Source: Octopus vulgaris (lineage: Eukaryota). Taken from it: DNA of 64,000 bases. The stretch's first letter is position 1; each line of letters starts with the position of its first letter. Below the pieces are notes generated by a model. The model was not told the DNA's origin, made no database searches, and saw only the letters and a program-made list of their open reading frames with translations. The translations under genes were made by a program, and so were the position numbers. Positions 4,094 to 31,300 of the stretch are shown here, piece after piece. The DNA lies in NCBI GenBank assembly GCA_951406725.2, contig OX597825.1:21700001-21764000 (forward strand), in the 5' to 3' direction.

Positions 4094-4200
4094 CAAAACT
4101 GTCCGACGAACGGGAACGTGAAACTCTGAGTAGCAGTCTTTTTGTGATGTTTTTGCAGTTTTAATGATAAACCATATTGCTCTACCTCCGGTAGTTTGTG
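4094..4200 (+). mobile_element. PLE-type repeat with hammerhead motif (U4C variant)
   Basis: 4098-4137: actgt-CCGACGA-acg(ggaa)cgt-GAAA-ctc t gag-TA-gcagt; same family at 29541-29810. Confidence 0.6.
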
Positions 4201-4560
4201 TCTGTATATAGCATTTGCAAGGGTGGTCATCGATCCCATCTGTAGTTTTACGTGATACTCACAGACCTAGGTTTCTGAATGTTAACCGTCCCCAGTGTGA
4301 GACAAGCACCAGCTAGTGAAGACAGCTATCTTCACTCGCAAATACAATATATTCTTTAAGCGGCACACAGTCGCTCATCTCGTATCGAGAAAAAGAACGT
4401 TTTAAATCTCTGAGCTAGAGAAGTTAGCCATCGTCACTAGCTGGTTGTTGTCTCACACTGAGGACGGATAACATTCAGAAACCTAAGCCTGTGAGTATCA
4501 CGTAACATTAGAGATGGGAGCAATGACCTCCCTTGCAAATGCTATATACGGACAAAAACT
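4193..4560. mobile_element. Head-to-head inverted pair of PLE-type repeats, each with a hammerhead motif
   Basis: Arms 4193-4319 and 4434-4560 are reverse complements; consensus ctcaca-CTGAGGA-stemII-GAAA-cctagg-TC-tgtgag. Confidence 0.7.
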
Positions 4561-5359
4561 GAGTGTCAATAGCCAGTTTTCCTGGGGCTAAAATAACAGT
4601 AACATCGTCCTTTATAGCACTGCCACATTATGTTGGCAAATAAACGTTATATATATGTGTGTGTGTGTCGATATGCATCTATCTATCTATCTATCTATCT
4701 ATCTATCTATCTATCTAAGTTTCTTTCTTTCTCTGTATCACTTTCTCTCTCTCCCTCTCCCTCTCTCTCTCTCTCTCTCTGTGCATATATGTCATATCGC
4801 AGTGAAACCCGAGTCGCAAATATGCATAACATCCTGTGTTAATGACCTATATGTGCACAGACGCGCCCTCAGCCCCCTGACACGAACGAACGAATACACA
4901 TACACCCACACACTCGCACACACATACACACACACACACACACACACACACACACACACACACAAATACACACATTTCTATAAAAATACAGCAGGTTGTT
5001 TTCTCTTTTGTGCTTAAGAACATAATTCATTGAAATTGTTTTGAAACATCTAGAAAGCAGTCATAATCGTTTTTTTTTTTAAATCTTTTATCACGCCTTA
5101 GATATTGTTTGCACGGTTCATGTGCCGCAGCCATTAAATATATCGTAAAATATATTAAGTGAATCGTCTCACTATTTGCTTTAAATCCTGAAGAATTATA
5201 ATGTCTAGTTTATCACGGATTTACCTTGTTATTTTGAGATAAATATATCGAGATCTTAATAATATTATTAAGCAAAGTACATATTATGTTTCATAAACAA
5301 TATGAATCCCAAATGAATTTACAGCTTGTGAGACGAGTCTATGAGAAGTTATATAAACT

Positions 5360-5595
5360 GGGCGCAATGGCCCAGTGGTTAGGGCAGCGGACTTGCGGTC
5401 GGAGGATCGCGGTTTCGATTCCCAGACCGGGCGTTGTGTGTGTTTATTGAGCGAAAACACCTAAAAGCTCCACGAGGCTCCGGCAGGGGATGGTGGTGAT
5501 CCCTGCTGTACTCTTTCACCACTCTAAAAGGCGGTGCTCCAGCATGGCCGCAGTCAAATGACTGAAACAATTAAAAAAAAAAAAAAAAAAAAAAC
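5360..5595 (+). mobile_element. Chimeric tRNA-derived SINE: family B head with family A tail and poly(A)
   Basis: A box tggcccagtggtt, B box gtttcgattcc; after ctctttcaccac it switches to aaggcggtgctccagcatggccgcagtcaaatgactgaaac. Confidence 0.8.
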
Positions 5596-5599
5596 ACTT

Positions 5600-5742
5600 G
5601 CTCATACTAGTACTCGACTGATATTTTTGTTCCTAGAAGATGAAAACCAACCTCAGTGAAATGGAACTCAGAACGTAGCGGTGGATGAAATATCGATGAG
5701 CATTTCGTACAACGCACTAAAGATTCTGCCAGCTCGCCGCCA
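5600..5742 (-). mobile_element. tRNA-derived SINE family C fragment
   Basis: Reverse complement of head ggcggcgagctggcagaatc; homologous to 42459-42689. Confidence 0.7.
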
Positions 5743-28025: not shown

Positions 28026-28561
28026 ATGAATGTATATATGTGTATTTATACGCACGTATGCATGTATGTAGGAGTATAAATGTGTACGGTTTTGTAAGCT
28101 TGTAAGCGTGCATATATGTATGTATGAATGTGTGTATGTATATATATATATATATATATATATATATATATATATATTGTATATGTATGCATATATATAT
28201 ATATATATATATATATATATATGTATATATATATTTATATATGCATATATATATATGTATGTATGTGTGTGTGTATATATACATATAGATACACTTATAA
28301 AGTCAATCCCTGTTGACCTAAGATCAAAGACATCGTCCTATATCTAAATACACTTCAGTAATACATCATAAGACAACCTTTTAATTTAGATGGAGTGGTT
28401 TATTTTATTAATGATTTTGATGGTATTGTCGTTGGTTATTGGAGAATTGGCGGATTGTTCGTGGTGGTCGTGGATAGGTTGGACTTGGTATGGCGTTGGT
28501 TGTGTTGCTGTTGATGGTTGATAGCGGTGGTGGTGAAGTCTGTTATATATATATATATATA

Positions 28562-28682
28562 TGTGGCTGTATGATAAGTAGCTTACTTACCAAACACATG
28601 GTTCCGGGTTCAGTCCCAGGCACTTTGGCCAAGTGTCTTCTACTATAGCTTCGGGACGTCGGATGCTTTGTGAACGGTTTTG
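28562..28682 (+). mobile_element. SINE family A 5' fragment
   Basis: gtggctgtatgataagtagcttacttaccaaacacatggttccgggttcagtccc. Confidence 0.7.
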
Positions 28683-29540
28683 GGAGGAGCGGTGCTATTA
28701 AGTTAGATATGGTCTGCATCAATATTTGGTCGAAACATATCTAAGTAATGTAAGTCATATAAATTATCTAATTTATATATATATGTGAGTATTGAAATGG
28801 ATATGTTTATCAGATATATGTTTTTAAATAGAATCATTTATTTCATATTCTTTGATAATAACGTGATATACCCTATGTGTAAACCTATCAAACCGTAGTA
28901 CAAGACTTACATATAATGTAATTGTTCCCACTCGGACGCAATTTTATACATACTCACATACATACTTTCATAAATATATATACATATATGTATATACACA
29001 TGTACACACATATACATTTGAATATATATGTATATATATATATATATATATATATACATAAATATGCATATATATACGATAAATATTTATGTATATAAAT
29101 ACATGTACATGCACACACATACACGCGCACACACACAATCACACACACATACATACACAAACACACACACACACACTCGCACATATATATATATATATAT
29201 ATATTACGAAACAGCGGCAGGTAATAAAAGTGCATTTTCAAACTTTAAATCCTTTGAGCGTTTAAATTTATATATAATTTCTTGATAGGTTACAAATTAC
29301 TTTTCTATTAAAGTACAATCTATCGTCTTGAAACTGGAGATCATATTAGGCTTGCGGAATGAGTTTAATCAAAACTTTTCCCGATATGATTGTTGAATAC
29401 ATTACAAGCGCAGTGGTTAGCAGCTTGCTTCTCTCACATGGTTCTCAGTTCACTTCCACTGTGTGGCACCTTTGGCGGCCCCAGTCAAATGACTGGAACA
29501 AGTAAAAGAAAATAATAGAATATATCTATATATATATATA

Positions 29541-29810
29541 CCGGAGTAAACACATAAATGTTAAACAAGGTGGAAAAAAGAGCACTCAAATACCAGTGGT
29601 AGAGTAATATGCTTTATTTAAAGCAGCAGAAAATTCAACAAAACCTGTTACTCTGAGTTGCACGTTCCCGTTTGCACGTTCCCGTTTGCACGTTCCCGTT
29701 TGCACGTTCCCGTTTGCACGTTCCCGTTTGAAAAAACTGTCCGACGAACGGGAACTTGAAACTCAGAGTAATAGGTTTTGTTGAATTTTCTGCTGTTTTA
29801 AATAAAGTAT
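29541..29810. mobile_element. Head-to-head PLE-type pair (U4C family) in (TA)n with five 14-bp repeats at the junction
   Basis: HHR motif 29736-29775 on plus; left arm is its reverse complement; ttgcacgttcccgt x5 at 29658-29727. Confidence 0.75.
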
Positions 29811-29884
29811 GTATGTATATATATATATATATATATATATATATATATATATACATATATATATATACATATATATATATATAT

Positions 29885-31300
29885 CTAAAATTATAAAAGG
29901 AAATAAGCACACTTATATAGTCTTAATATTTCGACCGGTTTCGCTATCGCTATTCATGATATTATGTTTTACTTATTTGAATATGCATTTTGTCTTAAGA
30001 AGAAATTTTGTCCACGTTGTGTGTGATGTAATTCACGAGTGAATGACTTCACAAATAAATAAATACAGGGAGGTAATTGGTTATCGTTATTCTTGTTATT
30101 ATTATGGGTAAGGGAGATAACTGTTCAGCTTTCGGTAATGGTAGGGGAATATATATGTACATACAAAGAAAAGTTTCGAAAACCTTGTTTTAGTGAGGGG
30201 ATTTATGTACAGTGATGTAATCGTCAATTGAAATATGTAAAAAGATAAAAGCTGGTTATGCGTGCATATTAAGACGTGTGCTATACTTTTCAATGAAAAA
30301 AGTTTCCTTATTTAAACGTTCTTGTAGAAAGATTGTGTCATTGCACTGGTAGAAGAGGAAGACTGTGAAATTTGGTCTGATGTTATCTGCACATTTTTCT
30401 ATATGTTCCCTAAGCGGAATTTGCCTGTATTGCCGGAAACGGATTTGCACTTTATATAGACTGGTTCTCTTTCTCAAGGTCATGCTCGTTTGTCCAATAT
30501 AGTAGTGTCCGCAACCCGAGTAGGTAATTACATAAATTAGGTTCTCAGAAGCACAAGTAAAACTAGTTTTAATTGTGAAACTCTGTCCTTGTTTGAAAAG
30601 GAAATCCGAGCTTTCAAGTAGGTTGGGGTAGGTCCCACAGTTTGGGCGTTCACAGTTTTCAACCGTTGATTTCTTGGTTGTTTTCTAAAGCTTCGCATTT
30701 GTTAGTAGTCTCTTTAGCTATTTGTCTTGTTTTATGCATTTGATTAGTTTGTGTGTTTTCAGGATGTCATTCATTTTTGGATCTCTAGTTAGTAAAGGAA
30801 GAGTTTGCACAATAGTGTTGAATGCCTCACTGTTTCTGGGGTTGGGTGTTGATATAAATAGTAATGTTTTAAGTTGAGGTGTGGTGCTATGTTTTGTTGT
30901 TCTTAGTGTTTTTGTATCTAATTTTTTGGTACGTTTAATTCCCTCGTCGATAAGTGAGGATGGATATTGTCTTTCAATAAGCGTTGTTTTGAGGCCTTGA
31001 AGACGAAGGTCCCGAGTTGTTCTATCAGACACTATTGTGCAAATCCTTTTTGCCAAATGAAAAACATAGCACCACAATAACAAGAATAACGATAACCAAT
31101 TACCTTCCTTTATTTATCTACTTTTGAAGTCATTCACTCGTGAAATTCATCACACACAACATGGAAAAAAAATTCTTAAGAAAAAATGCATATTCAAATA
31201 AGCAAAACATAATATCATGAATAGCTATAGCGAAACCGGTTGATATATTAAAAATTATATTACAACTATGTAAGTGCGCGTATTTTCCTTTTTTAATTTT
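29885..31300 (-). mobile_element. 5'-truncated Penelope-like element (Neptune-like) with inverted terminal repeat
   Basis: GIY-YIG ORF remnant flanked by inverted pLTR copies each carrying an A3:U8 hammerhead motif. Confidence 0.8.
30256..31070 (-). pseudogene. PLE RT thumb, linker and GIY-YIG endonuclease pseudogene
   Basis: One frame with two premature stops (near 30719 and 30686): LAKRICTIVSD...ERQYP...CERPNCGTY...TCASENLIYVITYSGCGHYYIGQT...R...EHIEKC...ERLNKETFFI. Confidence 0.85.

Follow-up and report, generated by a model that had tools for sequence, protein, structure and literature searches.

What kind of event places two copies of the same ribozyme-bearing repeat head-to-head in a genome? 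The question is raised by 64,000 nt of Octopus vulgaris DNA (contig OX597825.1 of assembly GCA_951406725.2, forward-strand positions 21,700,001 to 21,764,000; this whole stretch is the window, and positions below count from its first letter). At six sites a hammerhead repeat on the minus strand stands to the left of a plus-strand copy. A first-pass annotation, made from the letters of the window, had described these six sites, sorted them into five sequence families and attributed them to Penelope-like elements (PLEs), which often carry an inverted upstream pseudo-long terminal repeat (pLTR). The inverted pair is present at 6/6 sites and all five families are recognized, and we name them by window site: A (4193), B (15972 and 24533), C (26102), D (29541) and E (29885). 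The layout itself was already in print (Arkhipova 2013; Craig 2021). We regard the pairs as a known kind of structure in new families, real and non-random, and we hold with moderate confidence that both arms of a pair derive from a single template.

The window is rich in microsatellites, and the assembly comprises 2.8 Gb in 227 contigs. Our unselected sample was 1.064 Mb of contiguous sequence on four contigs chosen irrespective of content. Targeted sets held, for each family, the 30 loci that best matched the queries; 30 more loci were added for family E (18 used as new) and 21 insertions for a young branch of family D, with 16 further young D loci left out.

Head-to-head pairs as single insertions

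Among 43 clusters of the five families in the unselected sample, 17 are head-to-head, 25 single, 1 complex and none tail-to-tail; outside the window, 12 head-to-head pairs stand against 0 tail-to-tail (P = 2.4e-4). A family-free motif scan of the same 1.064 Mb returned 12 hammerhead matches (0, 0 and 1 in shuffles), 7 with an inverted partner upstream and 0 with one downstream. In the targeted sets an inverted partner lay upstream within 1.5 kb at 22/30 loci of C, 21/30 of D, 9/30 of B and 6/30 of E, and within 6 kb in 10 of the 21 young D insertions. Apparent tail-to-tail tags were rejected on inspection: those of family A were artefactual, the query having included a portion of the inverted arm; of the rest, L087 and L130 are short matches, and L020 and L113 are separate units that lie side by side.

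Direct repeats lie on either side of the complete pair in 14/22 C cases, as against 13 of 462 swapped controls, and under a stricter score in 11/22 against 1/462. These target-site duplications measure ~8-14 nt and vary in length. The polarity counts and the direct repeats that enclose the whole pair therefore argue that a pair is one insertion event rather than a miniature inverted-repeat transposable element (MITE).

The fixed polarity proposed by the first-pass annotation is thus borne out in the unselected clusters. Tail-to-tail pairs in equal number, or fixed ends with fixed-length duplications, would have contradicted it, and arms, ends and duplications all vary. Its PLE origin agrees with the reverse transcriptase (RT) and GIY-YIG frames in D and E and with the pLTR hammerheads, and its picture of two reverse-transcription events joined centrally is probably right, given duplications that enclose the pair.

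Long and short 3' ends

In each family the 3' end comes in two forms, short and long, the long one ending in a tail. Pairs tend to combine the two. In family C, the unselected family, 18 of 22 pairs are long+short, with 2 long/long and 2 short/short (P = 0.002), and the same combination is found in 8/9 pairs of B, 5/7 of A and 9/12 of E. Family D gives 20/20 in a set selected on the tail, and the young D pairs, mostly selected on the short end, give 8/10, with one short/short and one broken. Short-ended single copies are common and short/short pairs rare, as would follow if the two start sites are used jointly.

The tail arm is the shorter one on the 5' side in 5/8 young D, 4/9 E and 6/18 C pairs, with a mismatch of containment between tail arm and short arm of up to ~2 kb. 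Arms range from ~50 to 1,500 nt, most copies have a single arm, and the arms of D mostly share 1-10 bases at their junction or simply abut.

Sister arms

Alleles were scored against the commonest letter of each column. An initial count over the five families, which overlaps the later sets in part, gave 73 rare alleles shared between the arms of an insertion against 24.2 expected. In 10 young D pairs (8,824 columns, with simple-repeat columns and clustered differences excluded) we counted 25 differences within pairs against 77.7 expected between, and 30 shared non-majority alleles against 1.9 expected, 19 of them private to the insertion. The young D copies fall into at least three haplotype groups, yet none of the 25 alleles confined to one arm turns up at a different insertion. 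For E, ten pairs show 88 differences against 144 and 40 shared alleles against 3.0, 26 of the 40 from the single locus L281. Diagnostic site 2989 is concordant in 8/8 scorable D pairs and site 1196 in 7/8 E pairs. The density of private variants (0.39% in paired arms, 0.19% in single arms) is uninformative, given selection and double counting.

The shared rare alleles therefore disfavour two RNAs from different loci. The first-pass annotation had suggested two RNAs held together in a hammerhead dimer and had named, as a check, whether the arms of young insertions differ at subfamily-diagnostic sites; the arms prove to be sisters, and a single diagnostic site, in the E pair L257, is discordant.

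The six insertions of the window

The pairs lie where the first-pass annotation drew them, and the right ends of A (~4649) and B (~16262 and ~24877) extend further out because one arm carries the 3' tail. A (TA)n setting holds for D, E and the right end of A, and does not for B and C. The polarity of the ribozymes was read correctly, and most window copies are decayed, with core or stem damage. The features are as follows.

4095-4201, plus: separate single family D copy adjoining the left arm of A; core CCGACGA, 4103-4132
4193-4414, minus: family A left arm, tandem ~355-nt retrozyme-like unit with its 3' end missing, cut off at 4193 against the D-type copy; decayed hammerhead 4258-4301
4431-4649, plus: family A right arm, short 3' end, then (TA)n; hammerhead 4452-4495, core CTGAGGA, cleavage triplet mutated
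15974-16078, minus: family B first insertion, left arm, very decayed, short end, core broken (score 49 against a shuffled maximum of 36)
16091-16262, plus: family B first insertion, right arm with tail; core GTGAACA
24527-24667, minus: family B second insertion, left arm, short end; core GTGAACA (G3-C8); its left junction is also present in contigs of runs X18 and X19
24682-24877, plus: family B second insertion, right arm with ~55-nt tail; hammerhead 24693-24729
26089-26101, plus: family C target-site duplication, left copy, 13 nt, one mismatch to 26740-26752
26108-26269, minus: family C left arm with tail, 5'-truncated; hammerhead ~26190-26236
26271-26351, plus: family C tRNA-like head with A box and B box of RNA polymerase III (Pol III) type
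26360-26590, plus: family C expanded linker (AAC/TAC/TAA)n, between head and pLTR part
26594-26739, plus: family C right arm, short end; hammerhead 26645-26680, core CTGAAGA
26740-26752, plus: family C target-site duplication, right copy
28764-29536, minus: host flank of element E, left copy, inverted duplicate
29540-29672, minus: family D left arm with 71-nt tail, inserted in (TA)n; begins inside the ribozyme, without the 5' half of its core
29658-29730, no strand assigned: 14-nt unit repeated 5.2 times at the D junction, consisting of ribozyme stem II sequence
29732-29810, plus: family D right arm, short end; core CCGACGA 29741-29747, stem II damaged
29885-31070, minus: family E main arm, 5'-truncated PLE with 3' pLTR and short end; hammerhead ~29927-29963
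30259-31062, minus: family E broken frame (RT thumb, Cys linker, GIY-YIG)
31076-31301, plus: family E inverted pLTR arm, short end; core ATGAATA (A3-U8) 31217-31223
31300-32080, plus: host flank of element E, right copy, inverted duplicate

The 14-nt tandem at the D junction likely arose by reiterative copying; it resembles repeated re-priming on a short template, which is notable for a relative of telomerase.

Around element E, ~780 nt of host DNA is duplicated in inversion, and these two copies of the flank are the only ones found in the assembly; 3' transduction as its source found no support, with no third copy in the assembly. Inverted host flank also surrounds two more same-end pairs (~400 nt at L323, at least 1.2 kb at L144). 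The four same-end C pairs have a short inverted flank at most (L026, 16 nt). Our test for inverted flank covered 150 nt, too little to pick up the case in the window itself, and its negatives for long/short pairs therefore carry little weight. Two loci deserve mention for themselves. At L026:1144-1696 the right arm of a C pair has 16 nt of inverted left flank lodged between its short end and its tail, the mark of a template switch, and L251:1-3270 is a near-perfect palindrome of at least 3.2 kb (98%) centred on an E pair, either a true rearrangement or an assembly artefact.

Elsewhere in the window, four further fold-backs (8644-8789/9318-9463, 6287-6387/7414-7520, 45043-45289 and 35849-36014) gave no PLE protein match. 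Those at 8644 and 45043 adjoin (TA)n and may be additional PLE families, and the one at 35849 is a member of a commoner repeat. A single hammerhead-like motif lies at 44256-44303 on the minus strand (core CTGACGA), with no second copy in the 1.064 Mb, and at 2933-3846 a 452-nt unit is duplicated in tandem at 94% identity.

Coding and non-coding families

The sense of E is fixed by its open reading frame (30259-31062, minus) and that of D by the frames at L286 and L287; for A, B and C it follows from hammerhead polarity and fixed 3' ends. Copies of D run into an RT frame with YRDD and a GIY-YIG-like stretch seen by eye; the D frames gave no Pfam match and are weakly similar to the RT of E (BLASTP, E 5e-4). 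Its general resemblance suggests that D may be Penelope/Poseidon-like. In E, RVT_1 scores 30.3 bits (cut-off 29.6) in L283 and GIY-YIG 24.3 bits (cut-off 22.6) in L282 (Pfam); the window copy is 83% identical to L282, and its own GIY-YIG score falls under the cut-off. The linker of E is C-x4-CxxC (L282) and its target (TA)n, matching a description of Neptune that has such a Cys linker and such targets (PMC8557442; this and the other sources cited by PMC number or DOI were drawn on in part, and statements about them refer to those parts). The insertions show 5' truncation, an inverted upstream copy, an optional 3' tail and a variable target duplication. With RT, GIY-YIG and pLTR hammerhead added to this signature, D and E appear to be endonuclease-containing (EN+) PLEs. 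The young D subfamily (L290-L339, L286, L287; 99% identity, at least three haplotype groups) is suited to population and empty-site study.

The other three families are non-coding. Family A is a ~355-nt tandem unit. Family B is very abundant; its ~215-nt unit starts at a fixed 5' point, closely followed by a G3-C8 hammerhead, and no promoter or parent was identified for it. Family C consists of a tRNA-like head, an (AAT)n linker and a pLTR part, with a common 5' boundary. Its A and B boxes lie 34-35 nt apart in 16 of 20 heads (2 of 4,000 shuffles), relaxed ARAGORN accepts 4/20 heads against 6/200 shuffles, and in the 1.064 Mb a pLTR with hammerhead follows 9/9 head matches; within the window neither Rfam nor default ARAGORN gave a tRNA match. 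We read C as a tRNA-headed, PLE-ended family of short interspersed elements (SINEs) with a predicted Pol III promoter. It bears the full PLE insertion signature and would therefore link a tRNA-type SINE directly to PLE machinery. Upstream of the head, the C loci L003 and L028 have further sequence in common, and some C copies therefore derive from longer transcripts.

Hammerhead motifs

A minimal type I hammerhead motif is present in all five families, on the sense strand, with family-specific stems and a palindromic stem III. The core is CTGAGGA in 14/19 parsed A arms, GTGAACA (G3-C8) in 23/30 parsed B arms, CTGATGA or CTGAAGA in 29/33 C arms and ATGAATA (A3-U8) in 30/32 E arms, and the motif is intact in 27/29 young D arms. 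A strict motif scan of the window, blind to the ATGAATA core of E, passed 2/12 arms (24693-24729 and 26645-26680). Rfam returned no hammerhead family among the best 150 of 153 matches to the whole window, where chance matches to microsatellites and microRNAs dominate, and none in three small window stretches. The ribozyme identification accordingly depends on our own motif descriptor and on conservation.

Families B and E have a swapped 3-8 core pair, and their ribozymes are putative. A U3-A8 core is a natural variant (PMC4209133, PMC3088659), and C3G/G8C partially rescues activity in vitro (PMC11167929). Our literature search, which missed the study of dimer-cleaving PLE hammerheads, found no natural G3-C8 or A3-U8 core.

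How a pair could arise

Polarity, end asymmetry, sister arms and target duplication are directly observed. To account for them we propose, giving it an even chance, that the two strands of a staggered cut each prime reverse transcription on the same RNA, one from a short and the other from a long (tail) start site. The GIY-YIG domain would nick both strands ~8-14 nt apart, often in (TA)n, as established PLE biology and the variable duplications suggest. One 3'-OH would start complementary DNA (cDNA) at the upstream site, its counterpart 30-70 nt further downstream. The first cDNA would be displaced as the second polymerase advances; PLE RTs are not known to have RNase H. Each cDNA would halt independently or at the 5' end of the RNA, and the two 3' ends would be joined centrally, as the 1-10 bases shared at most D junctions suggest. 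Non-autonomous RNAs (tandem A, 215-nt B and tRNA-headed C) may borrow the same machinery. A stricter form, in which twin priming is obligatory and a protein dimer copies one RNA twice, from start sites spaced by the tail and on both target strands, we offer more tentatively, as just short of an even bet. Purified PLE protein cuts and extends both strands, two adjacent RNA start sites delimit the tail, and a dimer is predicted (PMC11167929).

Several observations weigh against priming of both strands on one RNA. In that in vitro study the start site was alike on both strands, and coupling of the starts lay outside its scope (PMC11167929). Our evidence is computational, from the sequence of a single assembly. 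Same-end pairs do occur (4/22 in C, L323, L144 and window E). Shared private variants fit equally one RNA, two transcripts of one locus, DNA copying or later conversion. In the older families the arms diverge about as much as unrelated copies (0.084 against 0.081 in C, 0.064 against 0.062 in B) and carry little signal, and of the E alleles confined to one arm seven recur elsewhere, six of them infrequent and the seventh at a common site (the broken pair L257). The arms of L281 are 97% alike when the next of the 40 best genome copies reaches 92%; this want of a close sibling leans towards DNA-level copying or conversion rather than a shared source. Gene conversion may have acted between long arms such as these; pervasive conversion between short arms is unlikely, as old pairs are as divergent as unrelated copies. 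Uneven loss of the centre of a long palindrome could also break containment. Finally, the 29-30 best-matching loci per family showed no upstream coding sequence that would mark an autonomous partner of A, B or C.

The strongest competitor, possible although less probable than priming of both strands, is a DNA fold-back, in which a cDNA begun at the long start primes itself and is copied towards the target, stopping or being cut at the short site or else entering host flank. It accounts for the sister arms, private variants and L281 included, for near-perfect palindromic centres and arms that share the same 5' point (8/20 D and 5/9 B pairs), and for inverted host flank at three same-end pairs, that of the window lacking a third copy. 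However, under a fold-back the tail arm should hold all of the short arm, and in the 5/8 young D, 4/9 E and 6/18 C pairs whose tail arm is the shorter it does not, unless central deletions followed; short starts should also give many short/short pairs, and such pairs are rare. Single copies, too, can reach equal 5' points (the fixed start of B; D 379-382), which could be template ends, and the flank duplications could be later rearrangements or, in the 97-98% cases, assembly artefacts. For the minority of equal-end pairs with duplicated host flank, fold-back is the likely origin, and for the sixth window element fold-back or later rearrangement is the better reading.

We consider it improbable that two different RNAs, joined by a dimeric hammerhead, are copied one per nick. 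The palindromic minimal stem III would permit dimers (PMC4209133) in all five families, L257 is discordant at a common diagnostic site, and the arms of L028 look different in age. Yet arm-only alleles do not recur in other D insertions, sites 2989 and 1196 are concordant almost throughout, and a symmetric dimer gives no reason for one end to be long and the other short; ribozyme catalytic mutants leave in vitro insertion unaffected, although dimer pairing is a separate matter (PMC11167929). A form of this reading in which both RNAs are transcribed from one locus withstands the variant tests. A little less probable again is a single tandem transcript with two pLTRs, on which the second primer copies the upstream partial unit. 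PLE sources are partial tandems (PMC8557442), the tail of L286 runs into the open reading frame of the next unit, and family A is tandem; but B and C, units with a fixed 5' start and one pLTR, still form pairs with arms of nearly the full unit, and long D arms (1-1.5 kb) differ by 0-0.7% only. DNA-transposon MITEs, or chance neighbours from separate insertions, are scarcely credible. Short B and D copies do look like 200-350-nt palindromes in TA-rich sites, the mimicry of which the first-pass annotation warned, but fixed symmetric inverted repeats and a fixed-length duplication were not found: arm and duplication lengths vary, ends are asymmetric, most copies have one arm, and D and E hold RT/endonuclease frames. 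Chance neighbours should be tail-to-tail equally often, and none of the 43 clusters is.

Relation to known systems

In twin priming of L1, reportedly described by Ostertag and Kazazian in 2001, both target strands prime on one RNA. L1 resembles our pairs in the head-to-head inversion, the short-homology join and the duplication around the unit; unlike them, it is said to have an internal second primer and a single 3' end, whereas both arms here start at the 3' end, at two fixed sites. Copies L137 and L134 of E and L323 and L324 of D show internal-position inversions or 0.8-1.7-kb jumps, like L1 twin priming or template jumps.

EN+ PLEs are alike in their inverted head-to-head pLTRs, one-sided tail, (TA)n targets, palindromic junctions and pLTR hammerhead (PMC3846280, PMC8557442). 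Head-to-head is given as their most frequent arrangement, with the tail on one inverted pLTR and self-priming proposed (PMC3846280); the same structure is drawn elsewhere, and the life cycle called undefined (PMC8557442). Their duplications in rotifers are 8-10 bp, against ~8-14 nt here. The published layout is qualitative, as far as the parts consulted show; here it is counted, the arms are identified as sisters, the ends are anti-correlated and the same-end, flank-duplicated class is set apart. For Penelope, the literature that we covered held nothing on point about twin priming, subscription papers, older PLE reviews and supplements being largely uncovered. The PAc Poseidon system in vitro shares the two tail-delimiting RT starts and the cutting and extension of both strands, and uses uncleaved ribozyme RNA as template, just as the copies here contain the whole ribozyme; unlike that study, where start coupling was out of scope, ours concerns paired starts, with tails of ~30-70 nt (PMC11167929).

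The type I hammerheads of PLEs share the minimal palindromic stem III, and in Schistosoma pairs lie 100-700 bp apart on opposite strands; a U3-A8 core is noted as well (PMC4209133), in contrast to the G3-C8 (B) and A3-U8 (E) cores of our putative ribozymes. Schistosome hammerhead SINEs and animal non-LTR retrozymes are likewise non-coding hammerhead units thought to be PLE-derived, with a Pol III promoter (predicted here in C) or a ~355-nt tandem monomer (here A); C differs in being dispersed, single or head-to-head, and in joining promoter, microsatellite linker and pLTR (PMC6765202; 10.64898/2026.07.22.740005; PMC7229834). We found nothing direct on a PLE-mobilized SINE, a weak negative under the same limit of coverage.

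Implications

Outside the window, ~12 head-to-head pairs per Mb would correspond to ~30,000 hairpin-capable loci from these five families alone. Such loci could be misannotated as MITEs or microRNA precursors and, if transcribed, could yield double-stranded RNA. PLE reverse transcriptases are the closest relatives of telomerase, and their mode of priming is of wider interest because of this kinship. The counts reported here offer a sharp test of a PLE cycle described as undefined, through template mixing and the coupling of long and short ends. If obligatory twin priming is true, it would explain the long-unexplained inverted pLTR and the one-sided tail together; the same machinery would carry the SINE family C and scatter MITE-like hairpins across this genome by the tens of thousands.

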